Virus record (IMG/VR): IMGVR_UViG_3300045988_138410 | Coordinates: 1-32,784 of that record | DNA from: a virus | Lineage: Duplodnaviria > Heunggongvirae > Uroviricota > Caudoviricetes | DNA length: 32,784 nucleotides | Strand: one strand, 5' to 3' | Shown: positions 5,003 to 27,498 of the stretch, in pieces | How the letters are laid out: each line of letters opens with the position of its first letter | Numbering within the stretch: the stretch's first letter is position 1 | Made by a program: the position numbers and the translations under genes | Notes under the pieces: model-generated | Databases searched by the model: none | Told to the model about the DNA's origin: nothing | The model's input: the letters and a program-made list of their open reading frames with translations, nothing else

Positions 5003-5404
5003 TTAATTCGTGTACGTGATCTGGTACGTGATTTCCGCCATCGCCCAGGTGGCCATCTCATTATCACGTTGATAGTTAAAACCGAGTGGGATCAGAGTGT
5101 CGATGAGTCCGGAAAGTGCCGGTACATCATTCAGGGCCGGGAAAATGGTGCTCTCCATCCACATATCCAGCTCTGAATCCGGTGCCTGTGCCCGGATGAA
5201 GACGGCAATATGCAGAACAGCCTGCCAGTCATCTTCATCCGTCATTTTTCCGGTGTACTGAGCATCACTCAGCCACACCGCCACGGCAGGCAGTTCCTGC
5301 GCATCAATGAATGCCGGAAGCCCGTCAAAAAACGTGGCGCTGTCTCCACACTGTTCCCGAAGGCGTGCCAGTACGACCTGGCGGATTTGTGTATGTCGGT
5401 TCAT
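5003..5404 (-). CDS. U: Tail terminator protein U
   Basis: ATFFDG..PAVAVWL...PDSELDMWMES pattern as recalled lambda gpU; ATGA overlap with Z. Confidence 0.85.
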   Translation of the reverse strand: MNRHTQIRQVVLARLREQCGDSATFFDGLPAFIDAQELPAVAVWLSDAQYTGKMTDEDDWQAVLHIAVFIRAQAPDSELDMWMESTIFPALNDVPALSGLIDTLIPLGFNYQRDNEMATWAMAEITYQITYTN

Positions 5405-15429: not shown

Positions 15430-15645
15430 TTACTCTCCCCGTGCAGCCTTACGCTTGTCTTCTTTAATCTTGAAATAAAGGTTTGTCAGATACGTCAGCA
15501 AGCCAAATACCAGACTACCCAGCACACCTATTGCCGCCCACTGTGAGGGCGTGACTTTATCGAGCAACTGTAAAAACCAGTACCCGGCACTACCTGCTGA
15601 GGTGCCATAGGCGACACCCGTTGTTAACTTATCCATGGATTTCAT
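15430..15645 (-). CDS. S: Pinholin (phage 21 S21 type) with dual start M-K-S-M
   Basis: [29 protein letters not shown]...[11 protein letters not shown] nearly matches recalled S21; two in-frame ATGs three codons apart. Confidence 0.85.
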
Positions 15646-15712
15646 AACCCCACCTCGCAGATGCGGGTGCTGTGTAATGGAAATAAAAAGGCCACCTGAC
15701 GTGGCCACCAGA

Positions 15713-16765
15713 TTATTTCCCCACCAGCTCGTTTATCTCTTTCACTGTCTGGTTAAACCGCTCTGACTCAAGCTCAACACCTAAGGCCCGACGCCCCAGC
15801 GCCATTGCTGCTTTTATTGTGGAACCGGATCCCATAAAAAAATCAGCAACCAGATCACCTGGTCGACTACTGGCATTGATTATCTGCCTGAGCATATCCG
15901 CCGGTTTCTCACACGGATGTTTCCCCGGGTAGAACTGAACGGGTTTATGCATCCAGACATCGGTATAAGGCACGGAGACTGATACGGAGAAATAGCGCCG
16001 GAGAGATTTAAACTCATCCAGCAATTCAGAATATTTGCGATTCAGTGAATCATAAGATGCCACCAGCTGGTGGTGTGGTTGTTCCAGTTGTTGTTCCTGA
16101 AACTTCTCTGCCGCTATACGGGAAAACAGTGCCTGTAACTTCCGATAGTCAGCCTCATTCGGCAACTGCCACTGACTGGCACCAAACCAGTGGGAAACCA
16201 TATTTTTCTTACCTGTGGCTTCGGCAATTTGTTTTGCCGTTATACCCAGTTCGGCACGAGCATCCCTGAAATACGAAATCAGCGGTGCCATTATGTGCTG
16301 TTTGAGTTCCCTTTCTTTTGCCGCATAGCCGTCACTTTTGCCGCGATATGGCCCCTGGTAATGTTCAGCAAACAGAACGCGCTCTGTGGCAGGAAAATAT
16401 GCGCGCAGACTTTCTTTATTACACCCATTCCAACGTCCGGACGGCTTCGCCCAGATGATATGGTTAAGCACGTTGAAACGTTCACGCATCATGATCTCAA
16501 TATCAGATGCCAGGCGATGCCCACAGAACAGGTAAAGGCTTCCGGCAGGTTTTAACACCCGCCAGAACTGGGCCAGACAGTGGTCCATCCACTTAAGGTA
16601 ATCTTCGTCCCCTTTCCACTGATTGTCCCAGCCGTTGGGTTTCACCTTGAAGTACGGCGGATCGGTAACAATCAGGTCAATGGAATCATCAGGCAGGGAC
16701 TGAATAAAATGCAGGCAATCAGCGTTGATTAAATCAACACTGTTTATTTTTACAGTATTTTTCAT
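15713..16765 (-). CDS. Orphan DNA methyltransferase, beta-class (DPPY then FxGxG)
   Basis: LIVTDPPYF near N-terminus and DFFMGSGST near C-terminus; no adjacent restriction enzyme gene. Confidence 0.8.
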
Positions 16766-16915
16766 GGATCAGTAAGCGTAACTCTGGTAGGCTCACTCTG
16801 CTTTTGCGCTAAAGCAGTGGGCCGTGGTTCGCTTGTGACCAGTAAGCATGAGCGAATGGCTGGCAGGTGCTACCAACACCCACCAGCCGCCCATTTTCAC
16901 AGCAGGAAACCGCCA

Positions 16916-17119
16916 TTACTGGCAGCGTCTGAATTTATTCCCGTACCCGCCGTTATCCTTCGCCAGCCCCGCCAGAACTAACTGAGTCAGTATTAACTGG
17001 CACCGGGCTTCGCTTACTCCGGTAGTTCTCGTCATCATGCGTGGCGTTACCCACTTGTCAGCAGGTAAGAAATGAAGGACTGCGGCGGCGGTTTCTGTCA
17101 TATCTTGCTGTTTTAGCAT
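16916..17119 (-). CDS. Small hypothetical protein, possible winged-helix DNA binder
   Basis: 67 aa from ATG 17119 with AAGGGA RBS; between tR' and methylase; function unknown. Confidence 0.35.
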   Translation of the reverse strand: MLKQQDMTETAAAVLHFLPADKWVTPRMMTRTTGVSEARCQLILTQLVLAGLAKDNGGYGNKFRRCQ

Positions 17120-17241
17120 GTCTTTTTCCCTTCTGGTTAACATGACATACCAATAACTCTTGTCTAAAAAGCCAGCAAGATAAAAAGTCAGTATTCACGA
17201 CCACCAGCGTGTTTACTGTACTGCACCAAGTTTACAGGTAC

Positions 17242-17266
17242 AAAAAAACCCGCTCAGTGGCGGGTT
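17242..17266 (-). terminator. tR'-like intrinsic terminator downstream of Q
   Basis: Minus strand AACCCGC-loop-GCGGGUU followed by U7. Confidence 0.65.
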
Positions 17267-17312
17267 CTTAAATCTTATCAACGGTAGACATACAAAGCCC
17301 ATCGTTGTGAAA

Positions 17313-17341
17313 ATCTTATCCATATTTTTTGAAAAATGCAA
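17313..17341 (-). promoter_or_regulatory. Candidate late promoter pR' (TTGCAT-17-TAAGAT)
   Basis: Sigma70-like hexamers on minus strand just downstream of Q stop and ~45 nt upstream of the terminator. Confidence 0.45.
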
Positions 17342-17372
17342 GCATCATGTCGTCATCTTCGGCGAAAACCAT

Positions 17373-18125
17373 TTATCTTGTCACCTTTCTCAATTGTATC
17401 TCTGCATATGCTTCTTCCTGCCAGCACTTTGTAACCAGTTTATCAATGACATCTGCATATCCTTTGTACCACTGATAATCCGTCAGGTCTGGTACCAGCT
17501 TCTGGACATGAAGCCGCGCCAGTGTGGTTGGTAAACGGCTAAACCGGTTTCCATTGCAACGCCCACAAACCTTATAAACAGGCGTGCCATGAAGCCGGGT
17601 TCTTTTTTCATCCAGGACAATACCTTTACCCTTACACCCTCTGCACGCTGTGCTGACTTCTCCCTTACCATGACAATGCTGACACAGTTCCTTCACCCAC
17701 TCTTCCTTGATAACAGATTCCCCGCTTCTGGAGTGTTTTACCACCTCGCGCAATACATCATGAAATCCAGTACCAGCACAATGCTCACAGCGAGCCTTAC
17801 TTGCCGCAGACCTGGAATAATCAGCAAAGGCAAAATTCACAAGGTAAGGAATGATCTGTAGCCGGGTTTCTTCACTCAATTTGTTCAATGTCGGGTTATC
17901 CAGTGCCATCGCGTAATTGAACAGACCTTCAATCGCAAACTGAGGATCCTGAACACCAACTTTTGCCAGGAATAAGGCAAACCCAAGCGGTGCTTTCGAC
18001 TGCACCATCCCCTGCGCAGCCATTACATCCGTAATTGTTAAACCACCAGAGCCTGTCGCCGGTGCGTCATCGCTCAATTTTGGAGATTTTGTGGAGTAAT
18101 ATTTCGGTAAGGCTTCAAGGTTCAT
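17373..18125 (-). CDS. Q: Late antiterminator Q (QuuD/QuuQ-type, multiple CxxC motifs)
   Basis: 250 aa with CEHCAGTG, CQHCHGKG, CRGCKGKG, CGRCNG; located immediately upstream of pR'/tR'. Confidence 0.8.
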   Translation of the reverse strand: MNLEALPKYYSTKSPKLSDDAPATGSGGLTITDVMAAQGMVQSKAPLGFALFLAKVGVQDPQFAIEGLFNYAMALDNPTLNKLSEETRLQIIPYLVNFAFADYSRSAASKARCEHCAGTGFHDVLREVVKHSRSGESVIKEEWVKELCQHCHGKGEVSTACRGCKGKGIVLDEKRTRLHGTPVYKVCGRCNGNRFSRLPTTLARLHVQKLVPDLTDYQWYKGYADVIDKLVTKCWQEEAYAEIQLRKVTR

Positions 18126-18138
18126 GCTCGTTCTCCAC

Positions 18139-19134
18139 TTACGCCAGTACGCCTATTGCCAGCGCACGATCGATAAAACGAAATATCAGCTCCAGCTGGG
18201 AGCCATACTTCTCTTCAAATGCCACGGTATCCGCATGCAGCTCGTCGTGATGCTTTCTGCACAAAGGCAACACAAAGAGGTCATGCGCTTTTGTACCCAT
18301 TCCCCCCTGACCGTGGCCTATCAGGTGGTGGGGATCATCAGCAGGCTTTCCACAACATGCACACGGCTGTGTCTTAACCCAGCGCGTGTACTTTTCATTA
18401 ACCCAGCGGCGACGTTTTGGGCGTAACATAAAAGACTCCGGCGACTCCGGATCCACTTTCAGCGCCAGCACCTTTTTCGCCTTATCCTGGATGATGCTGG
18501 TGGCAGGAACCGAAGGCACAAGGTCACTTTCCCGGGTGACAGACGGCACAACAGGCTTCGGTAATCTCAGTGCCTTACGGGCTGCACTTTCCGGTAAGGC
18601 ATCCGCCAGGTCATTACGAATCAGCCACCAGCACAGTTCCGGCATTGTCACAACGTGACTGTCATCAAAACCGAGATCCCGACGCACAACAGACAACACC
18701 CAGCGGGCACAGTTATCCGTTGCCATTGATTCCAGCCGTTCCGTGAACTGATCGCGCAGCTGGTTATCGCAGTGCCAGCACAGACGGATTGCGCCCGGCG
18801 CGTGTCGCATTGTTGTCATGTTCTCGCTGTGCCAGTCGGAATGAGGCCACTGGCAGCCTTTTTCACGAAGTAACCAGCTTTCAAGACATTCCACGCCACC
18901 AGCACGACGGATCACTGCCTCATTGCGGAACACGGCCCGAACGACAGGATCATCCGCCAGCGGTTGTGATGCCGCCGGAACGGCACCACTGGCAAAAGAT
19001 GAATAACGTTCCGGCTCAGGCTCCAGCAGGACACGCCCCTGCATAAACAGGGGCATCAGCTCTGAACCAGGTCTGAACAATACGATCCCCATACGCGGGG
19101 CAATTTCAGGGGTCAGTAGTGCTCTCACAGTCAC
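18139..19134 (-). CDS. DUF968-family protein (YdfU-like)
   Basis: C-terminal CACCGKPADDPHHLIGHGQGGMGTKAHDLFVLPLCRKHHDELH motif recalled from DUF968. Confidence 0.65.
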   Translation of the reverse strand: MTVRALLTPEIAPRMGIVLFRPGSELMPLFMQGRVLLEPEPERYSSFASGAVPAASQPLADDPVVRAVFRNEAVIRRAGGVECLESWLLREKGCQWPHSDWHSENMTTMRHAPGAIRLCWHCDNQLRDQFTERLESMATDNCARWVLSVVRRDLGFDDSHVVTMPELCWWLIRNDLADALPESAARKALRLPKPVVPSVTRESDLVPSVPATSIIQDKAKKVLALKVDPESPESFMLRPKRRRWVNEKYTRWVKTQPCACCGKPADDPHHLIGHGQGGMGTKAHDLFVLPLCRKHHDELHADTVAFEEKYGSQLELIFRFIDRALAIGVLA

Positions 19135-19135
19135 C

Positions 19136-19945
19136 TCAATGAACGGTATCGAGCAGCTTTAACAGCTCAGGGAATCGGGATTCGAAGAAATGCGGCTGCG
19201 TCTCGCGCGGATTTGCGGGACTGGTGATGTTCTTGCCGAACATGCAGCCTTTCGCTGTCAGCGACCAGAATTTTTTGATGTTGTTAATCGCGGTACGGCT
19301 GTATCGTTCGCGCTGCTCGACGATCCCCAGCTTCACCATCTGGTGATATGCCTGATTAGCCGTAAGGCGGATACCATACTGTTTCAGCAGTGCACTCAGC
19401 GACAGCGTGGGGCGACTTGAGCCATCAGGCGCGTCAGCAGGAGCATCAATGGCATAGCGCGGTGCCAGATTCGGTAAGCCAACAGCCTCCTGGAGTTTCT
19501 GACAGGCACCAAGCACTGATGAGTTAGACAGGTTTAACTCCCTGCGCATAAAGTCCAGCAGAATCACACCAGCCTGCATCTTGTCAGCAGCCTGCCCGGA
19601 TAATTTTTCCGGTGCGCTGGTTACCATATCGAAAGTACGGATCACCTTCAGATGGAATGACGGGCTGATCCACATTGCATAGGCATACACCAGTTCCTTG
19701 CAGACATACGTTCCCCGTTCATTTCCCCCATGAATCACACTCACCGGGTCAACACCCAAATTCTGGGTGTTGGTCAATTCATGAACAAGCTCAACAGTTT
19801 GTTGGCTGGAAAGAAACTTTCCTGGCTCCTTGGTTCTGGCATTTGCACCAGATGCTACTGCTGCGCGATGCAGATCGTTCAGGCTGTAACGCCCATAAGC
19901 ATCACGACGAACTTCAATACCATCAATGACCATCAGATTATTCAT
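19136..19945 (-). CDS. KilA-N domain protein
   Basis: N-terminus MNNLMVIDGIEVRRDAYGRYSLNDLHRAA typical of KilA-N; GAGGAG RBS before ATG 19945. Confidence 0.7.
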   Translation of the reverse strand: MNNLMVIDGIEVRRDAYGRYSLNDLHRAAVASGANARTKEPGKFLSSQQTVELVHELTNTQNLGVDPVSVIHGGNERGTYVCKELVYAYAMWISPSFHLKVIRTFDMVTSAPEKLSGQAADKMQAGVILLDFMRRELNLSNSSVLGACQKLQEAVGLPNLAPRYAIDAPADAPDGSSRPTLSLSALLKQYGIRLTANQAYHQMVKLGIVEQRERYSRTAINNIKKFWSLTAKGCMFGKNITSPANPRETQPHFFESRFPELLKLLDTVH

Positions 19946-19964
19946 ACTTCGTTTCTCCTCTTGA

Positions 19965-20354
19965 TCAGGCGGCTGCACCCGCCGTTTTCTCGTACTTACT
20001 GATAGTGATCTCGACCCTCCCTTCCGGGATAACCGGTCCCCACTCCACCAGCATTCTTTTCACCTGACTGTCGTCTTCCCACACACCCGCGTGGGTCAGG
20101 GCGTCAAACAGCGCCTTGTTATAGTTGTCCAGATCGCGGATCCGGTTATCCGGAGGAAACAACACGATCTCCACTGAAGCAGGTGCCGACGTTGGTTTTG
20201 GCAGACGACGTAACTGCTCAACTATTGCTGCACACGCCGCGCTCTGGAATTTGCGCCCCGCCGCGCTTATCAGGCTCTTACCTGCAAACGCCCCTTTGTT
20301 GGGGTGTCGCCAGTACGTGTTCACGCTGGGCGGAAAAGGCAGTATTAGCTTCAT
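19965..20354 (-). CDS. rusA: Holliday junction resolvase RusA
   Basis: PPSVNTYW...RDLDNYNKALFDALTHAGVWEDDSQV matches recalled RusA. Confidence 0.9.
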   Translation of the reverse strand: MKLILPFPPSVNTYWRHPNKGAFAGKSLISAAGRKFQSAACAAIVEQLRRLPKPTSAPASVEIVLFPPDNRIRDLDNYNKALFDALTHAGVWEDDSQVKRMLVEWGPVIPEGRVEITISKYEKTAGAAA

Positions 20355-20677
20355 ACTTTCAGCTCCCTCTCATGTAACCAGTGGGCTGCACGCAGCCTGG
20401 CGTTTTCCTCACCGGCAAGCAGTGCGCGGATAATCCCGACCGCCTCGCTGTCGTCGTCCTTCACCGCGGTATGAAGAGTGATACCCCGGGCCACGCCACG
20501 CTTTATCGTGATGACGCCTTTTTTCTCCAGTGCGCGAAGATGCTCCACCGCTGCATTCACTGAACGGTATCCCAGCATGGTTGCCACCTCCTGATTGGTT
20601 GGCGGGAAGCCACGTTCTTTCTGGTAAGAAATCAGCATATCCAGCACCTGCTGCTGGCATTGAGTTAACGTCGTCAT
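20351..20677 (-). CDS. LexA DNA-binding-domain-only protein (no S24 peptidase domain)
   Basis: LTQCQQQVLDMLISYQKERGFPPTNQEVATMLGYRSVNAAVEHLRALEKKGVI parallels LexA N-terminal domain; only 108 aa. Confidence 0.6.
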   Translation of the reverse strand: MTTLTQCQQQVLDMLISYQKERGFPPTNQEVATMLGYRSVNAAVEHLRALEKKGVITIKRGVARGITLHTAVKDDDSEAVGIIRALLAGEENARLRAAHWLHERELKV

Positions 20678-21327
20678 GCAGCCATCTCCCTGACCAGTTT
20701 TTCCGCCTGCTGGCGAACCTGCGCCAGAAAGGCCTCACCACATGCCTCAAGTTCATCGCGCCCGATGTAGCTGATTGCCGGTCCCTTCCAGGTCTTGTCG
20801 AAAACAGCAATAGCACCAGCTAAGAAAGCGCCTGTCGGCACCTGCTTCTCATCCTTTGGGATAAACCAGGCAGGCAGTTCAAAACCAATACGCCCGCGAA
20901 TAAAAGCAATATGATCTGCATCTTCCGGCCACCACACTTCGCTGGTGGCAGCTTTGATCAGGAAAACATAGCGACCGCCTTTATCACGCATGGCACTGGC
21001 ATGCTTCATGATGTAACGCATGCCGGTGATGTATTGCCCCTCATGCTGACTGGCGCGGCTGTATGGGGGATTACCAAAGGCAGCACCTTTAAGCTCCGCA
21101 AGACGTTCTGACCAGTCATGTGCCAGCGCGTTGTCTTCCGCCGTGTAATACGCGGCACATTTGGCGTTATCACCGTCAGTGAACAGATCCAGAACAAACG
21201 GACCAAACAGGGTGTTAATTCCCCAGAAAATGTTATCCGGCGTGCGCCACTGATCGCCCACTTCCTTCAGTTCATGGGCTGGTTTGTTCCGCAGTTCCAC
21301 CAGCGCCTGGCAATATTTATTACTCAT
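20674..21327 (-). CDS. Phage Dam-family N6-adenine DNA methyltransferase (NPPY)
   Basis: AFGNPPYS motif; start chosen at ATG 21327 (MSNKYCQ) overlapping upstream stop. Confidence 0.8.
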   Translation of the reverse strand: MSNKYCQALVELRNKPAHELKEVGDQWRTPDNIFWGINTLFGPFVLDLFTDGDNAKCAAYYTAEDNALAHDWSERLAELKGAAFGNPPYSRASQHEGQYITGMRYIMKHASAMRDKGGRYVFLIKAATSEVWWPEDADHIAFIRGRIGFELPAWFIPKDEKQVPTGAFLAGAIAVFDKTWKGPAISYIGRDELEACGEAFLAQVRQQAEKLVREMAA

Positions 21328-21821
21328 TAAGCCCCCACGTAATTCCCTGACAGATACCACTCTTCACCTGATGCAGCCCGCTTATTGCTTTTCCGTAAAC
21401 ACCGTTCACGACGCGCCAGAAAATTATTTCGTTCTGGCTGGGAGTGGCTTTCACGGAATGCCGCCATCCACACCGTTGCAGCACGACGGTATAAGCCCCT
21501 AGACTCCAGTTCTTCCGCCTGGCGGGTCAGGCACAAAATCACCCGCGGGTCGTTAGTGCCGACATAGAAATTGCGCACAGGTCTGGTTTCACGAACTGGT
21601 TGTGGTTCCGGCTCCTGCGCTCTCTCAGTCAGGCGTGGGAAATGTCTGCGTGTATCTCCTTCACAACGGTGAGCCACACGCCCACTCTGACGTAACTTGC
21701 TTGCTGACTGCAGAACGCGCTGCCGTGAGTAACCTGCAAAAGCATCCGCAATATCTCCGGAAGTACACCCCGGATGGGCTTCAATGAATTTCTGAACTTC
21801 ATTCAAAAGACTCATGATCAC
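21327..21821 (-). CDS. PerC-family-like transcriptional regulator
   Basis: C-terminal AEELESRGLYRRAATVWMAAF resembles recalled PerC/Pch signature; ATGA coupling to upstream gene. Confidence 0.45.
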   Translation of the reverse strand: MIMSLLNEVQKFIEAHPGCTSGDIADAFAGYSRQRVLQSASKLRQSGRVAHRCEGDTRRHFPRLTERAQEPEPQPVRETRPVRNFYVGTNDPRVILCLTRQAEELESRGLYRRAATVWMAAFRESHSQPERNNFLARRERCLRKSNKRAASGEEWYLSGNYVGA

Positions 21822-22636
21822 CCCCTGAATCCTGCCGGGATCTGGCTGTAGTCCACGTTGTCGTAACTGGCTTTGAAGTACGGGTCCTCACGTCTGGCTG
21901 CAGATACCGCAGGAACTTCCCAGGATTCTTCGAAATGACGATCCGGACCAAAGAACGTGACAGCCTGTTTCACAAATTGTGTGCCGCTGTTACCCATCGC
22001 AGATACCCAGCCCGCATAGCGTTTCACACCTTCCAGCATGGTTTCGGGGTTTACCCCCTCATTCAAACGGGCTTTCCAGGCTTTGAAGGCTGCAGATTTT
22101 GAATTGCCACCAGCACGTTTGGGATATGCCAGCCATGCCTGCTCAAACTCCGGAGAGTATTCCGGTCGGTTTGAACGAACTCGCACAGACTCATCAGCAG
22201 ATGCACCAACAGCTATTGGTTCATTGACTGGTTCTTTGACTGGTTCAAAAGAGTGACTGGTTCTGGGTGAATCTCCTGCACTACCCCCTGGTGCAACTCC
22301 TGCACTACCTGGTGAATTTGTTGCACCAGATAGTGAATTATTTGCACTACCCCCTAGTGAATCTCCTGCACCATCAAGATGAAGAAGATAGATATTACTT
22401 GAGTTACCTTTTTCACCTTTCCGGGTGACTTTTTTTACCAGCCCGGACTCACAGAGGGCCGCAATATGATTCATCACAGAACGTTTGCTAATCTCGCACT
22501 GATCAGCGATATGCTGATAGCTGGGCCAGCACTCGCCCTGATCGCTGGCATTATCAGCCAGCTTGATCAGAACCAGTTTTCGCAATGGATTACCCACTCG
22601 AATTTTCATCGCTTTAACCATCAGCTCCATACTCAT
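21818..22636 (-). CDS. Replication initiation protein (O-like, N-terminal HTH, central low-complexity linker encoded by iterons)
   Basis: N-terminal winged-HTH-like segment; Gly/Ser/Ala linker; C-terminal EFEQAWLAYPKR motif; contains direct repeats. Confidence 0.7.
   Translation of the reverse strand: MSMELMVKAMKIRVGNPLRKLVLIKLADNASDQGECWPSYQHIADQCEISKRSVMNHIAALCESGLVKKVTRKGEKGNSSNIYLLHLDGAGDSLGGSANNSLSGATNSPGSAGVAPGGSAGDSPRTSHSFEPVKEPVNEPIAVGASADESVRVRSNRPEYSPEFEQAWLAYPKRAGGNSKSAAFKAWKARLNEGVNPETMLEGVKRYAGWVSAMGNSGTQFVKQAVTFFGPDRHFEESWEVPAVSAARREDPYFKASYDNVDYSQIPAGFRG
22265..22374. repeat. Iteron array (five ~21-24 bp direct repeats) next to an AT-rich stretch: candidate replication origin
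   Basis: Repeats GGTGAATCTCCTGCACTACCCCCT / GGTGCAACTCCTGCACTACCT / GGTGAATTTGTTGCACCAGATA / GTGAATTATTTGCACTACCCCCT / AGTGAATCTCCTGCACCATC, then AT-rich 22375-22440. Confidence 0.7.
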
Positions 22637-22857
22637 GCTGCACCTCCGAGATGCTTCATGTTTTTTCCGGAGCGAAACGCTATAAGCGGCATACTGACGC
22701 GGTAACTACGGCCCAGCGGTTCACAAATCACCTTCTGACATTCACGGTCAACCAGGCTAACACGTAGAACATGCCCTGCAGGTGTGGTGTACCACTGACC
22801 CGGACGAGGACAACGGAAAGTCTGATTGGTAAACCGTTTGAAAATATTCCGGATCAT
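22633..22857 (-). CDS. Small hypothetical protein, Cys-containing, translationally coupled on both sides
   Basis: ATGA overlaps with both upstream and downstream genes. Confidence 0.45.
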   Translation of the reverse strand: MIRNIFKRFTNQTFRCPRPGQWYTTPAGHVLRVSLVDRECQKVICEPLGRSYRVSMPLIAFRSGKNMKHLGGAA

Positions 22858-24002
22858 TTGCGCCCCCTTACCTCTGAAGGGTTCAGCGACAAATTTATGA
22901 GGCAGGCCAGTGCCGAAGCATCATTAATATAGTCATACAAGCTAACAGCCAGCGGAGATTCGGCTTTTGCCAACATAGGATAAAGCTGCTGCAGCCAGAC
23001 CTGATGAATTGATGAAATGTAGGAATAGAGAACGCTGGCGTTATGTGCAACGTCGCTCAGTACAGAGGGATTTGAAAGCTGTTTCTCCATCTGGTTAAAG
23101 GCATTGATGTATGCCTCTTTGAACTGGGCAGCACGTTTACCCATGAAACCCATAGCAAGAAACGCAAAGCCGTCGCGGGTTATTTGGTAGCAAGGAAGTT
23201 TGCGACCTGTGCAATCAGTGTAATCACTCACCGAAAAATTGCGGGCAGTGAATGATGCTGAGCATTCAAGCGTGCGGATCTTTTTCAGTACATCGCCATG
23301 ACGTTTGGAGAAGAAGTTGGCAACAGCCAGGGATGAAGTAACAGCCTGACCATCAACGATGGCAATTTCAGGTTGAGTGAGGGTTGGGATCGTAGCCATG
23401 ATGGCAGCCTCCGATAACAGTGAATTACCTTCACCACCGGAAACGCCAATTTCGCTGGTGGTGAACTGAACGGGGTTGGCGTAACCGGCGTTATCGGAAA
23501 CCGGCGCACCTTTCGGTGCCCCCGTCCAGCCCACCATAATTTGGGTGTGCACAGACGCAGACGATAAAAAAGACGCTGGCGCGTCATATATCGCCGATAA
23601 CATTTCCAGGACGCCAATCCCGGCACCCGCTTTATAAGGTGCCTGAACAGTGTAACGTCCCGGAATGGCAGAATCAATGTGCTGGTGGTCCTTCACACTC
23701 AACAAAATCACGCCTGAATTTCCACAAAGGACTAAAGCACTCATGCGGGTAGTCTTTGCGAAGATAGATAACGCGCTGTGTTTCTGGCTCCCAACGAATA
23801 ACATGGACATAAAGCCCTCTTCCATCACGAAACCAGCGGTTAAGTTCCTGCACAACTCGCCCCCCACAGTCAGGTAAAGTTCTCTGTGGTTACTTACAGC
23901 CAGGTGATTTGGTAATCTGCATTCATGCCGTAACAACAGGTGTTCAGCGACACTGACCACCAGCTGTTGCGACAAACGGTTATTTGCCGTTAAACTGTTC
24001 AT
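22854..24002 (-). CDS. Rha-domain regulatory protein with ~200-aa N-terminal extension
   Basis: Central QPEIAIVDGQAVTSSLAVANFFSKRHGDVLKKIRTL..YQITRDGFAFLAMGF resembles Rha family; ATGA coupling to upstream gene supports long start. Confidence 0.55.
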   Translation of the reverse strand: MNSLTANNRLSQQLVVSVAEHLLLRHECRLPNHLAVSNHRELYLTVGGELCRNLTAGFVMEEGFMSMLFVGSQKHSALSIFAKTTRMSALVLCGNSGVILLSVKDHQHIDSAIPGRYTVQAPYKAGAGIGVLEMLSAIYDAPASFLSSASVHTQIMVGWTGAPKGAPVSDNAGYANPVQFTTSEIGVSGGEGNSLLSEAAIMATIPTLTQPEIAIVDGQAVTSSLAVANFFSKRHGDVLKKIRTLECSASFTARNFSVSDYTDCTGRKLPCYQITRDGFAFLAMGFMGKRAAQFKEAYINAFNQMEKQLSNPSVLSDVAHNASVLYSYISSIHQVWLQQLYPMLAKAESPLAVSLYDYINDASALACLINLSLNPSEVRGRK

Positions 24003-24562
24003 GCGTTAGTTTCTCCACAGACACAAAACGCCACGACGCCCGGAGCTGCACACTCGCGGGCGTCACTCTTTTCTGGAGCGCAAAAGATTTTGTAGACCAG
24101 TGCTGCATGCTCCTGGAGCTTCGAAATTGACAGATACAACTCATCATTAATTGCTGTCTGCTCGTGTGGCTCCACTACCCCATCTTCGATTGCCGAACGA
24201 ATCTGCTTTGAGTAACTCCCGATCTGTTCGATGACTTCCAGCAGGCGCTGGTTTATATCGGCGTTCTCTACTTCCTCAATTTCAGGAAGCGATACAAACA
24301 CCCCACCAGCAGACTGTGCGACAGCATCCGCAATGTAGTGAGTGCCAGCCGCGCGCTGTAAAATCATTGCCCATCCCAGCGGGAAAATCTGATCGCCATC
24401 TGCACGAAGGCGGTTGAATAAAGCGTTCTCTGTTACATCCAGCCACTCAGCAGCTTCAGCGTACCCCCCCGGCAACGCCGCGATAGTTTTTCTGACAGCT
24501 TTCACGTACCACTCAGGCTGTTTTTCTACTTTCCAGTGATGCTTACCCACGGTTAGCCTCAT
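23999..24562 (-). CDS. CII-like / YdaT-like early regulatory protein
   Basis: Position immediately after cro-like gene; TIAALPGGYAEAAEWLDVTENALFNRL segment; family assignment tentative. Confidence 0.45.
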   Translation of the reverse strand: MRLTVGKHHWKVEKQPEWYVKAVRKTIAALPGGYAEAAEWLDVTENALFNRLRADGDQIFPLGWAMILQRAAGTHYIADAVAQSAGGVFVSLPEIEEVENADINQRLLEVIEQIGSYSKQIRSAIEDGVVEPHEQTAINDELYLSISKLQEHAALVYKIFCAPEKSDARECAAPGVVAFCVCGETNA

Positions 24563-24593
24563 CGTTCTGTGGTTAAAAATTGAAGGTGTTCTG

Positions 24594-24794
24594 TTAATCT
24601 TTCGGATAGATATCCGGTCTTAAGTCAGATTTCGTAATTGCACCTGACGTGCATTGCTCAAGTTTTTTAGCCAGCACAAAACTGGCTTTTTTATAACCAT
24701 TGAAAACCAGCCGTAAGTAGCCTGGTGTTGAGCCAACTTTTCCGGCCAACTCGCCCTGCTGTTCTTTGGTTAAAGAGTCCCAATACGCTTTCAT
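24594..24794 (-). CDS. cro: Cro-like repressor (YdaS-type HTH)
   Basis: 66 aa from ATG 24794 (ORF track extends upstream); divergent from CI; GGAGG RBS. Confidence 0.7.
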   Translation of the reverse strand: MKAYWDSLTKEQQGELAGKVGSTPGYLRLVFNGYKKASFVLAKKLEQCTSGAITKSDLRPDIYPKD

Positions 24795-24884
24795 ACAATA
24801 TGTACCTCCGATATACATATTACATGATTGAGATGAACCTTCAAGATACTTGTACCCTATCGGTACAAAGGTTTTAATTTCGTT
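24795..24884. promoter_or_regulatory. Immunity control region: divergent pR (TTGAAG-16-TAATAT toward cro) and pRM-like promoter with inverted repeat TTGTACC-N5-GGTACAA (24850-24868)
   Basis: Hexamers and palindrome read directly; cI ATG has no obvious SD, suggesting a leaderless transcript. Confidence 0.55.
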
Positions 24885-25559
24885 ATGAAAACAGTCCATG
24901 ACATCCGGCGGTCTAACGCCAGAAAACTGAGAGATGGTGTTGGCGGGAATTCTTCCTTTGCCACCATGATTGATCGCGAGCCAACCCAGACCAGCAGGTT
25001 TATGGGAGATGGTGCTACTAAAAATATCGGTGACAGCATGGCACGGCACATCGAAAAATGTTTCGACCTGCCTGTCGGATGGCTTGATCAAGAACACCAG
25101 ACAACAAACATCACAAAAAAACCTGATGTTTCAATTACTAACAAACAAATAACGTTAGTCCCTGTCATATCATGGGTACAGGCCGGAGCATGGAAAGAAG
25201 TTGGCTATTCTGAGGTTGATTTGAGCACAGCAGAAACTTATCCCTGCCCTGTACCCTGTGGCGAAATGACTTATATCTTGCGGGTGATTGGTGATTCAAT
25301 GATTGATGAGTACCGCCCAGGAGACATGATTTTTGTAGATCCTGAAGTCCCTGCCTGCCACGGTGACGACGTTATTGCATTGATGCACGATACGGGCGAA
25401 ACCACCTTTAAGCGGTTGATAGAAGATGGAACACAGCGTTACCTCAAAGCATTAAACCCAAACTGGCCTGAACCTTACATTAAGATCAACGGTAATTGCT
25501 CTATAATTGGTACAGTAATTTTCTCAGGAAAACCAAGAAGATACAAAATAAAGGCCTAA
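24885..25559 (+). CDS. cI: CI-type prophage repressor with LexA-like S24 autopeptidase domain
   Basis: C-terminal VQAGAW (Ala-Gly cleavage site) ...VIGDSM...K Ser-Lys dyad pattern; divergent from cro-like gene. Confidence 0.85.
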   Translation: MKTVHDIRRSNARKLRDGVGGNSSFATMIDREPTQTSRFMGDGATKNIGDSMARHIEKCFDLPVGWLDQEHQTTNITKKPDVSITNKQITLVPVISWVQAGAWKEVGYSEVDLSTAETYPCPVPCGEMTYILRVIGDSMIDEYRPGDMIFVDPEVPACHGDDVIALMHDTGETTFKRLIEDGTQRYLKALNPNWPEPYIKINGNCSIIGTVIFSGKPRRYKIKA

Positions 25560-25572
25560 TCAATATTTATAA

Positions 25573-25593
25573 CCTGCTTCGGCAGGTTTTTTT
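25573..25593 (+). terminator. Intrinsic terminator after cI (CCTGCTTCGGCAGG + T7)
   Basis: GC stem with TTCG loop followed by T-run. Confidence 0.75.
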
Positions 25594-25597
25594 ATAC

Positions 25598-25630
25598 TTG
25601 ACAATGTACCCTTGAGATACATAATGTATC
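25598..25630 (+). promoter_or_regulatory. pL-like early-left promoter (TTGACA-17-ATAATG) with overlapping palindrome GATACATAATGTATC
   Basis: Consensus -35, 17-bp spacer, near-consensus -10; 15-bp perfect palindrome over -10; shares ATGTACC motif with oR region. Confidence 0.65.
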
Positions 25631-26063
25631 TAAAAGAAACATGCCACAGGCAAGATTAAACAAAATTTGGTTGTAACACGGCGTATGGCACATGCGTCGT
25701 TAGCGGTCTGGGGACGTTAAAGGGGACAATCCACTCCTTGCTCGGGCAAACAAACCAGGTAGCCGGAATGTGCAAGTCAATGAGGATGCTGATAAGACGC
25801 CTAACCAGCGTGGCGATTCGGTTTGACGCCTGGGAAGAGACCAGGGTGCAACGATGAGGGCATTTATGGAACCGCGACAAAGTGTGGTGCCGTAACAGGC
25901 TAAGTGCTCTCAGCGTTGTGGTGAATGCGCAGGCTGATGCGCGAAAGACATTGCAGCTATTGCGGAAAAGAGCTGTTCGGCGGGGCAATTAAACGCCCGT
26001 GAGAGTCTGAAATAACCGCAAGCCGGAGATCAGCACCGGTCACCACAACAGCCACTGCTTTGG

Positions 26064-26197
26064 CGGTACCAGTTTGTACACTTACTTCCGGCTGGTACCG
26101 CTCTTTTTACAAAACAGAGAAGAGCATCACCGGACGACGGGCTCATAACCCAATCCATCCGTGCGGCAGTCACCGCAGGTGTTCTTCTCTGTTTTGT
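26064..26197 (+). promoter_or_regulatory. Structured leader element: boxA-like CGCTCTTTTTA flanked by two long stem-loops
   Basis: Inverted repeats CGGTACCAG/CTGGTACCG (26064-26100) and ACAAAACAGAGAAGA/TCTTCTCTGTTTTGT (26109-26197) with inner hairpin; function inferred only. Confidence 0.35.
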
Positions 26198-26245
26198 GGA
26201 GAAACCAACCGACCTTGCAGGGTCGATATGATGAGGAGCAGCAAA

Positions 26246-26608
26246 ATGGCTAGCGAACGCAGTACTGATGTGCAGGCATTTATCGGGGAGCTGGACGGCG
26301 GCGTATTTGAAACCAAAATCGGCGCAGTTCTCAGTGAAGTCGCTTCCGGTGTGATGAACACGAAAACCAAAGGTAAGGTCTCGCTCAACCTAGAAATCGA
26401 ACCGTTTGATGAGAACCGTGTGAAAATCAAACACAAACTCTCATATGTTCGCCCGACTAACCGCGGGAAAATTTCCGAAGAAGACACCACCGAAACGCCG
26501 ATGTATGTCAATCGCGGTGGTCGCCTGACTATTCTGCAGGAAGACCAGGGACAATTACTGACTCTTGCCGGTGAACCTGACGGAAAACTCCGCGCAGCAG
26601 GTCATTAA
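26246..26608 (+). CDS. Hypothetical protein, first gene of early-left operon
   Basis: 120 aa from ATG 26246 with GAGGAG RBS; no family recognised. Confidence 0.55.
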   Translation: MASERSTDVQAFIGELDGGVFETKIGAVLSEVASGVMNTKTKGKVSLNLEIEPFDENRVKIKHKLSYVRPTNRGKISEEDTTETPMYVNRGGRLTILQEDQGQLLTLAGEPDGKLRAAGH

Positions 26609-26673
26609 TATCGTTCTTAATTAACTGATTATTTATCTCATCACTGAATATCTTTATATAGTGAGGACTTATT

Positions 26674-27498
26674 ATGTCTCAGAACTTAGACGCAACCGCA
26701 ATTAATCAAATCCATGCCCTTATTTCTGCTCAGGGTGTTAATGAAATTATCAGTAAGATTGGTGCCGATGCTGTGGCATTGCCTGAGAATTTCCGCATTC
26801 ATGATCTGGAAAAATTTAATTTAAATCGCTTCCGTTTCCGTGGTGCGCTTTCCACTGCCAGCATCGATGACTTTACCCGTTATTCTAAAGATCTTGCAGA
26901 TGAAGGCACCCGCTGCTTTATCGATGCCGATAATATGCGTGCCGTCAGTGTGCTTAACCTGGGTACTATTGATGAACCAGGTCACGCAGATAACACTGCC
27001 ACTCTCAAACTGAAAAAGACAGCACCGTTCTCTGCTCTGTTGTCTGTTAATGGCGAGCGTAACTCCCAGAAGTCACTGGCAGAATGGATCGAAGACTGGG
27101 CCGACTACCTTGTAGGCTTTGATGCTAATGGTGACACCATTCAGGCAACAAAAGCGGCTGCGGCAGTCCGTAAAATCACGATTGAAGCAAACCAGACCGC
27201 TGATTTTGAAGATAATGACTTCAGCGGCAAACGCTCCCTGATGGAGTCTGTCGAAGCGAAGACCAAAGACATTATGCCAGTGGCATTTGAATTTAAATGC
27301 GTTCCGTTTGAAGGCCTGAAAGAACGTCCGTTTAAATTACGCCTCAGCATTATCACTGGCGATCGTCCTGTACTGGTTCTGCGCATTATTCAGCTGGAAG
27401 CAGTCCAGGAAGAAATGGCTAACGAATTTCGTGATCTGCTTGTTGAGAAATTCAAGGACAGCAAAGTAGAAACCTTTATTGGTACTTTCACCGCCTGA
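26674..27498 (+). CDS. DUF2303-family protein (YfdQ-like)
   Basis: 274 aa; size and sequence character recalled from CPS-53 YfdQ; tentative. Confidence 0.5.

Follow-up and report, generated by a model that had tools for sequence, protein, structure and literature searches.

Gene content of the locus

The stretch of DNA analysed here (the window, 32,784 nucleotides; IMG/VR virus record IMGVR_UViG_3300045988_138410, Caudoviricetes) is a lambdoid prophage. On its minus strand, an ORF with an ATG start (20351..20677, stop codon included) encodes a LexA-type DNA-binding protein of 108 amino acids that belongs to PHROG 362, as indicated by Pfam, NCBIfam, PHROG, and PDB matches and by its pN/pS. Directly upstream lies the gene for a Dam-type N6-adenine methyltransferase (20674..21360, minus strand; PF05869, E 3.5e-45), the TGA of which overlaps the ATG of the LexA-type gene (ATGA). 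Directly downstream, the ATG of the gene for a RusA Holliday-junction resolvase (19965..20354, minus strand; PF05866) overlaps the stop codon of the LexA-type gene in the same manner (ATGA). A promoter-like site was not found on the minus strand near the LexA-type gene. Together with the two overlaps, this assigns the gene to the early-right operon, and the overlaps themselves suggest that it is translationally coupled to both dam and rusA.

The early-right operon, all genes of which are located on the minus strand, starts with a Cro-like gene, followed by a CII/YmfL-like gene (23999-24562), Rha/Ash (22854-24002), a gene for an HTH_36/DnaD_N replication-type protein (21818-22636), PerC/YfdN (21327-21821), the Dam-type methyltransferase gene, the LexA-type gene, rusA, KilA-N (19136-19978), DUF968 (18139-19134), and, in the same direction, the gene for the Q antiterminator (17373..18125; Pfam Antiterm, E 1.5e-52). 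Divergent from this operon, on the plus strand, lies the gene for a CI-type repressor (24885..25559), as identified from the annotation of an identical prophage and from a Peptidase_S24 domain (E 1.5e-26). The latter domain agrees with an earlier note on this DNA, made from the sequence alone, which had described the CI of the prophage as an S24-cleavable repressor; it is presumably cleavable. Judged by its overlaps with both neighbours and the lack of a nearby promoter-like site, the LexA-type protein would be produced solely while this operon is active, i.e. during lytic development. The ORF of the replication-type protein contains nested inverted and repeated elements at 22288-22347 (arms 22291-22314/22324-22347 and 22288-22297/22320-22329), which resemble an iteron-type origin within an O-like gene.

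Identity of the encoded protein

[quoted passage not shown] The runner-up helix-turn-helix family was HTH_Crp_2 (E 0.0019, under its own cutoff), and all other helix-turn-helix families in Pfam were weaker than E 0.001, each under its own cutoff. As LexA_DNA_bind was that far ahead of HTH_Crp_2, the similarity is not of a generic winged-helix kind. Similarly, the top matches by sequence among the solved structures in the PDB were all LexA proteins (1lea, residues 2-70, E 6e-16). An AlphaFold model (AF2), for which an 18-member family alignment served as input, had a pLDDT of 83 and consisted of three helices and a two-strand wing. It matched the DNA-binding domain of E. coli LexA (1lea/3jso) with an rmsd of 1.0-1.3 Å and 50-51% identity (Foldseek). 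According to Pfam, AF2, and Foldseek, the winged helix-turn-helix, which is homologous to residues 1-70 of LexA, is encoded by codons 1-70 (20468..20677, minus strand), with helices 6-22, 28-35, and 40-52 and strands 56-58 and 66-68 in the model. [quoted passage not shown] The full-length profile match and the about 50% identity to E. coli LexA bear out the assignment to LexA; the rival families all remained below their cutoffs, and the structure matches were LexA throughout. In addition, a weak, sub-threshold similarity to DnaD_N and to replication-initiator PHROGs was seen.

The LexA-type gene is real and under purifying selection. Indeed, its pN/pS, calculated over 48 distinct alleles, was 0.10 overall, 0.03 in the part encoding the DNA-binding domain, and 0.18 in the part encoding the C-terminal tail. 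The possibility of a pseudogene or a truncated host lexA was ruled out by this overall pN/pS, the conserved tail, the stable length (104-135 amino acids over relatives of about 40% identity), and the rusA gene directly after it.

Missing peptidase domain and C-terminal tail

No match to Peptidase_S24 was found in the 108 amino acids of the protein (Pfam), and the NCBIfam model of full-length LexA (TIGR00498) was matched over its positions 1-91 of 203 only, with a score of 70.6 against a cutoff of 110.95. Because the protein ends at residue 108 and its stop codon overlaps the rusA start, there is neither an S24 domain nor a frameshifted remnant of it downstream. Thus, as had been claimed earlier, the similarity to LexA ends before the S24 autocleavage domain; RusA is encoded immediately next to it.

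In place of these parts of LexA, codons 71-108 and the stop codon (20351..20467, minus strand) encode a linker and two predicted amphipathic helices (residues 74-88 and 93-103), as derived from the AF2 model, the alignment, and the PHROG 362 profile. The residues A97 and L101 of this tail are invariant in the family alignment, and the PHROG 362 profile spans the tail to the profile end. The two modelled helices probably stand in for the hinge and S24 domain of LexA, replacing the lost dimerisation domain, and the tail is a candidate self-association module. The C terminus of the window protein is -LKV. One subgroup of the family (P0126 and P0129) ends in -GSAA, which resembles the Ala-Ala degrons that ClpX recognizes at the C terminus of proteins with an ssrA tag and of the N-terminal LexA fragment. 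Judged by these C termini, turnover may differ between family subgroups.

Residues A88-G89 of the window protein (LLAGEE) resemble the LexA cleavage site; the relatives possess AN, VG, ER, TR, DD, and other pairs at these positions. A trans-cleavable substrate or pseudo-substrate, as the likeness between RALLAGEE and the GRVAAGEP of LexA might suggest, was considered and rejected, as the Ala-Gly pair is conserved neither in close nor in distant relatives and as the region is predicted to be helical. Given the absence of both an S24 domain and a conserved cleavage site, self-cleavage stimulated by RecA* is impossible, and the phage protein is thus insensitive to activated RecA. This agrees with the earlier description of a truncated LexA that is not cleavable, in that a LexA-like response to RecA* is precluded. 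The heterodimer with LexA that had been suggested as well found no support, since LexA dimerises via its C-terminal domain (PMC10584840, PMC3091678), and this domain, with the dimer interface, is missing from the phage protein. The proteins P0130, P0132, P0156, and P0160 (141-222 amino acids) lack a peptidase domain and contain LexA_DNA_bind twice, one copy behind the other; they look like a covalent pseudo-dimer answer to the lost LexA dimerisation domain.

DNA read-out residues

The recognition helix SVNAAVEHLRALEK (codons 39-52; 20522..20563, minus strand) was delimited by alignment to E. coli LexA and by family alignments. Residues S39, N41, A42, and E45 of LexA are kept in the window protein, whereas E44 is replaced by Val and R28, ahead of this helix, by Asn. 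In E. coli LexA, the former four residues reportedly read the CTGT motif (PMC11442139), and E44 is counted among the DNA-contacting residues of LexA (PMC3091678). The wing residues R64-G65 are kept too. Throughout the family, S39, N41, and A42 are essentially invariant, and E45 occurs in all subclades but one, which has Leu instead. Among nine sampled cellular LexA proteins, R28 was conserved in all nine and E44 in eight; the phage family never has Arg at position 28 or Glu at position 44. Hence, the family has the appearance of a LexA head in which CTGT reading has been kept, secondary contacts have changed systematically, and another C-terminal module has taken the place of the dimerisation domain. 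The four retained residues make the occupancy of SOS boxes by the phage protein plausible, and the two lost ones speak against it.

Compared with E. coli LexA (1lea/3jso), the phage protein thus shares the winged helix-turn-helix over residues 1-70 as well as S39, N41, A42, E45, and R64-G65, but it lacks the S24/dimerisation domain and the conserved Ala-Gly, has both R28 and E44 replaced, and adds a two-helix tail that is specific to its family. Furthermore, E. coli LexA is SOS-autoregulated, whereas the phage gene sits in an early lytic operon.

LexA-type operators in the window

Candidate operators were scored with a matrix (PSSM) made from E. coli SOS boxes known from the literature, which themselves score 13-27 bits. 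Upstream of the LexA-type gene, no SOS box of at least 10 bits was present in the window, so that SOS-box autoregulation was not seen. Only one strong operator of the LexA type is present in the window, namely TACTGTAAAAATAAACAGTG on the minus strand (16738..16757). It matches CTGT-N8-ACAG exactly and scores 22.6 bits, a value that was reached by none of 200 shuffles. This box occupies codons 3-9 of a gene for an N6/N4 methyltransferase (15713-16765, minus strand); both Q and a terminator-like hairpin, taken to be tR', lie upstream of it. The next-best site (17158, 10.3 bits) is likewise located downstream of Q, and no other site of at least 10 bits occurs in the window. When at most one mismatch was allowed, CTGT-N8-ACAG was found 17 times in the window, with 11.4 occurrences expected and 7 of 100 shuffles reaching 17, which is not a significant excess. 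Immediately downstream of the SOS box, within the 5' end of the methyltransferase gene, lies the palindrome TTGATT-T-AATCAA (16717-16745, inverted repeat I3). An inverted-repeat scan of 15500-26700 revealed nothing compelling as a non-SOS operator or as a palindrome like that of GIL01 gp6, a phage protein discussed below.

The arms of the box at 16738-16757 are conserved in diverged phages, and its spacer and the encoded amino acids vary. The same late-methylase SOS box is present in L133 and L134 (position 9009 in both). Of 68 viral contigs that have a near-identical methylase locus and enough upstream sequence, 63 carry both the box and the LexA-type gene; with flanking modules being near-identical, this co-occurrence may be plain linkage. 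The methylase box is further present in phiP27 and Stx2_95, both of which are missing from the phage records listed as carriers of the LexA-type gene (60 of 61 listed). In view of these two phages and of the near-identical flanks, the box was rejected as a specific partner of the LexA-type gene; it is a candidate cis target, but probably a site of host LexA. In phiP27 and the Stx2a phage Stx2_95, the methylase gene and its box are located directly upstream of tRNA genes and stx2, which places a LexA operator between Q and the toxin/lysis genes.

Distribution and relatives of the LexA-type gene

The LexA-type gene was found in 2233 of 5426 complete E. coli genomes, with 95-100% nucleotide identity. 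Its carriers include SfV (orf42), SfII, SfIV, mEp460, the cdtI phage, 15 Stx2c-converting phages, and some Stx2a phages. The sequence has already been catalogued. Indeed, RefSeq names the protein 'lexA DNA-binding domain protein', 'LexA family protein', or 'LexA family transcriptional regulator', and phrog_362 is matched over its full length (residues 1-108 on profile positions 1-106 of 106; E 6.8e-59); the proteins of PHROG 362 and the NCBI 'LexA family transcriptional regulator' proteins are the same family as the window protein, without any difference. These names are based on homology, and literature searches retrieved no published characterisation of the lambdoid LexA-type protein. What is added here is the signature of the read-out residues and the repeated wiring of the relatives with SOS boxes, DinI, and RecA.

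Distant relatives were retrieved with an exhaustive HMMER scan; they are 106-135 amino acids long and display 40-53% identity, the tail being aligned too. The PHROG 362 profile was also matched by the distant members P0123, P0129, and P0133 and by the protein of contig L029. The PHROG 362 members of the window, the phage records, and the viral contigs are encoded in early or nin-type regions of temperate phages, and many other phages encode LexA-like proteins that consist of a DNA-binding domain only. A prophage of E. coli C311 (L001) with an identical LexA-type gene possesses a cluster of three SOS-like boxes of 17-20 bits (L001 6384-6507), directly followed by a Panacea-domain gene that lies at the end of the prophage; its insertion is only ~3 kb from the host lexA-dinF locus.

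Two contexts of the gene were distinguished. The first one, type A, comprises the window, mEp390, and the viral contigs L002-L016 and L044-L049, and has the order methyltransferase, LexA-type gene, rusA, one further gene in some cases, DUF968, and Q. Its methyltransferase slot is filled by three non-homologous families, namely PF05869 (window, 20674-21360), PF02086 (L003, 5119-5991), and PF00145 (L047, 4124-6010). This fixed slot represents non-orthologous replacement, through either functional coupling or a mosaic hot spot. In SfIV and 2H10, PerC is found in place of the upstream methylase.

The second context, type B, comprises 28 viral contigs (L017-L043 and L050) and the Klebsiella phage ST846-OXA48phi9.1 (L132, 1-2557). 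Here, the gene is always located between two small ORFs, phrog_1813 and phrog_1212, followed by DUF968 and Q; there is no adjoining methylase and mostly no adjoining RusA. The proteins encoded in this context share about 40% identity with the window protein. A strong SOS box (17.6-30 bits) lies 440-1470 bp upstream of the LexA-type gene in 27 of the 28 type B contigs. This box overlaps the -10 hexamer in L029 (promoter region 5290-5360) and lies right behind the -10 hexamer in L017, in both cases just past a terminator. The lead gene of the type B operon encodes a DinI homologue (PF06183, E 8e-22) or a phage RecA (PF00154, E 2.6e-130), or is absent. For example, the operon of L029 (5320-7558) can be read as a terminator, an SOS-box promoter, the variable position of DinI, RecA, or nothing, the phrog_1813 ORF, the LexA-type gene, the phrog_1212 ORF, DUF968, and a Q-like antiterminator. 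This arrangement suggests that a LexA-controlled promoter could feed into Q in the type B relatives. As DinI and RecA are components of the SOS response, the family has repeatedly been wired into the SOS circuit. Moreover, this wiring recurs over diverged subclades with different lead genes, indicating that the job of the family is tied to the SOS response beyond its mere descent from LexA. These neighbourhoods support an SOS-linked role of the family. The subclade with Leu instead of E45 also sits behind canonical SOS boxes; hence, those boxes fit host LexA and are no proof of binding by the phage protein.

Possible function of the LexA-type protein

The closest functional analogy is the N-terminal fragment of LexA (residues 1-84), which is a LexA species with a DNA-binding domain only as well. 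After cleavage, this fragment retains some SOS-box binding and repression, and its removal by ClpXP is needed for full SOS induction (PMC10584840). As the isolated N-terminal domain of LexA represses, a stable protein consisting of such a DNA-binding domain could in principle repress too. However, the LexA fragment is a transient proteolysis product whose newly formed C terminus carries a ClpX degron, whereas the phage protein is encoded by a gene of its own and has another, conserved C-terminal extension.

The explanation favoured here, tentatively, is that of a RecA-insensitive and damage-insensitive repressor at LexA-type operators. Once CI repression is lifted, the LexA-type protein would be made from the early-right (pR) operon and would bind CTGT-containing LexA-type operators at a time when host LexA is destroyed, thereby re-occupying SOS-type sites. 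Possible sites would be those of the host SOS regulon, those of LexA-controlled functions of rival elements, and the phage's own box before the late methylase and lysis genes. In this way, the protein would represent a stable version of the LexA N-terminal fragment, with a putative self-association tail of its own, and would be non-inducible in lytic growth. This reading is favoured by the specific match to the LexA DNA-binding domain, the four retained read-out residues, the precedent of the LexA fragment, the early-right operon position, the low pN/pS, the SOS wiring of the type B relatives, and the strong SOS box in the late region of the window. Several observations argue against such a repressor. 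First, no member of the family has kept R28 or E44. Second, the half-site spacing of LexA is set by the C-terminal dimer, which is absent from the phage protein. Third, the window gene lacks an SOS box of its own, and the methylase box is not specific to the carriers of the gene. Lastly, the sole characterised analogue, GIL01 gp6, is an activator that acts at a different site (PMC6182141).

The latter analogue leads to an explanation that is nearly as likely as the LexA-operator repressor, since the loss of R28 and E44 and the unfixed half-site spacing leave room for it. The protein gp6 of GIL01, a tectivirus of Bacillus thuringiensis, is a truncated LexA homologue that recognizes a palindrome of its own (GaCACA..TGTGaC) overlapping a -35 element and that activates the late promoter (PMC6182141). 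By description, it has in common with the window protein that it is a phage-encoded LexA homologue with a DNA-binding domain only, expressed from an early promoter and part of a phage switch tied to the SOS response (PMC6182141); it differs in being shorter and lacking the two-helix tail, and in belonging to a Gram-positive tectivirus without CI or Q. Accordingly retuned by the replacement of R28 and E44 and by a new dimerisation tail with a half-site spacing of its own, the domain of the LexA-type protein may recognize an operator of the phage itself and activate or repress phage genes, e.g. those of the late region or DUF968-Q, in which case the host SOS regulon would not be affected directly. 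This possible role is in line with the GIL01 precedent, with the systematic replacement of R28 and E44 throughout the family, with DUF968 and Q following the gene at a distance of one to three genes in every context examined, and with the many phages that carry LexA-like proteins of this truncated type. It is at odds with the conservation of the four main CTGT read-out residues in the window protein, with the regulatory regions of the window, in which no conserved non-SOS palindrome was found, and with the fact that Q already accounts for lambdoid late expression.

It is improbable that the protein acts by displacing LexA, its weak occupancy of CTGT half-sites or SOS boxes derepressing genes in undamaged cells, including those behind the late-region box of the phage. 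In favour of such a competitor, its read-out residues are the same as those of LexA, its expression from the early operon is ahead of the late genes, and the phage has to pass the SOS box between Q and the methylase/lysis genes even when it infects cells with undamaged DNA. However, the DNA-binding domain, once bound, would be an obstacle to RNA polymerase or at the promoter, and the conserved tail speaks for stable binding as an oligomer instead of weak binding as a monomer. Moreover, the gene of the relatives is switched on only after LexA cleavage, when nothing is left to displace. There is similarly little chance of an accessory role in DNA metabolism, in which the winged helix would target or modulate the neighbouring methyltransferase, RusA, or the HNH-like nuclease DUF968: the order methyltransferase, LexA-type gene, rusA persists across the non-homologous methyltransferases (PF05869, PF02086, and PF00145) and a weak, sub-threshold similarity to DnaD_N and replication initiators exists, but the upstream methylase is absent in SfIV and 2H10, with PerC there, type B lacks a neighbouring methylase and mostly RusA, and the fold is that of a sequence-specific repressor with conserved read-out residues.

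Implications for E. coli and its prophages

Mutagenesis, persistence, the induction of prophages and of Shiga toxin, and the release of colicins are all under the control of the SOS response. If the LexA-type protein binds SOS boxes in an uncleavable manner, SOS output would vary with the prophage content among otherwise similar E. coli strains, and induced prophages could silence SOS-controlled functions of the host and of competitors. As the gene occurs in Stx2c-converting and some Stx2a-converting phages, it may influence when toxin phages are induced. If, instead, the protein recognizes an operator of its own, it would be the second case, after GIL01 gp6, of a phage that has recruited the LexA fold for its own regulation.

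In its most far-reaching form, which we consider rather unlikely, the LexA-operator repressor would mean that about 40% of the E. coli genomes contain a prophage gene for a LexA paralogue that is insensitive to RecA and silences SOS boxes again in the lytic phase. Host SOS functions would then be silenced, as would colicins, SOS-inducible toxin/defence modules, and the antirepressors that rival prophages keep under LexA control. In the Klebsiella-type relatives, where it accompanies DinI or RecA, the gene would act as an SOS-inducible negative-feedback brake. The family would thus represent a hidden, strain-variable modifier of SOS mutagenesis, antibiotic responses, and Stx-phage induction.
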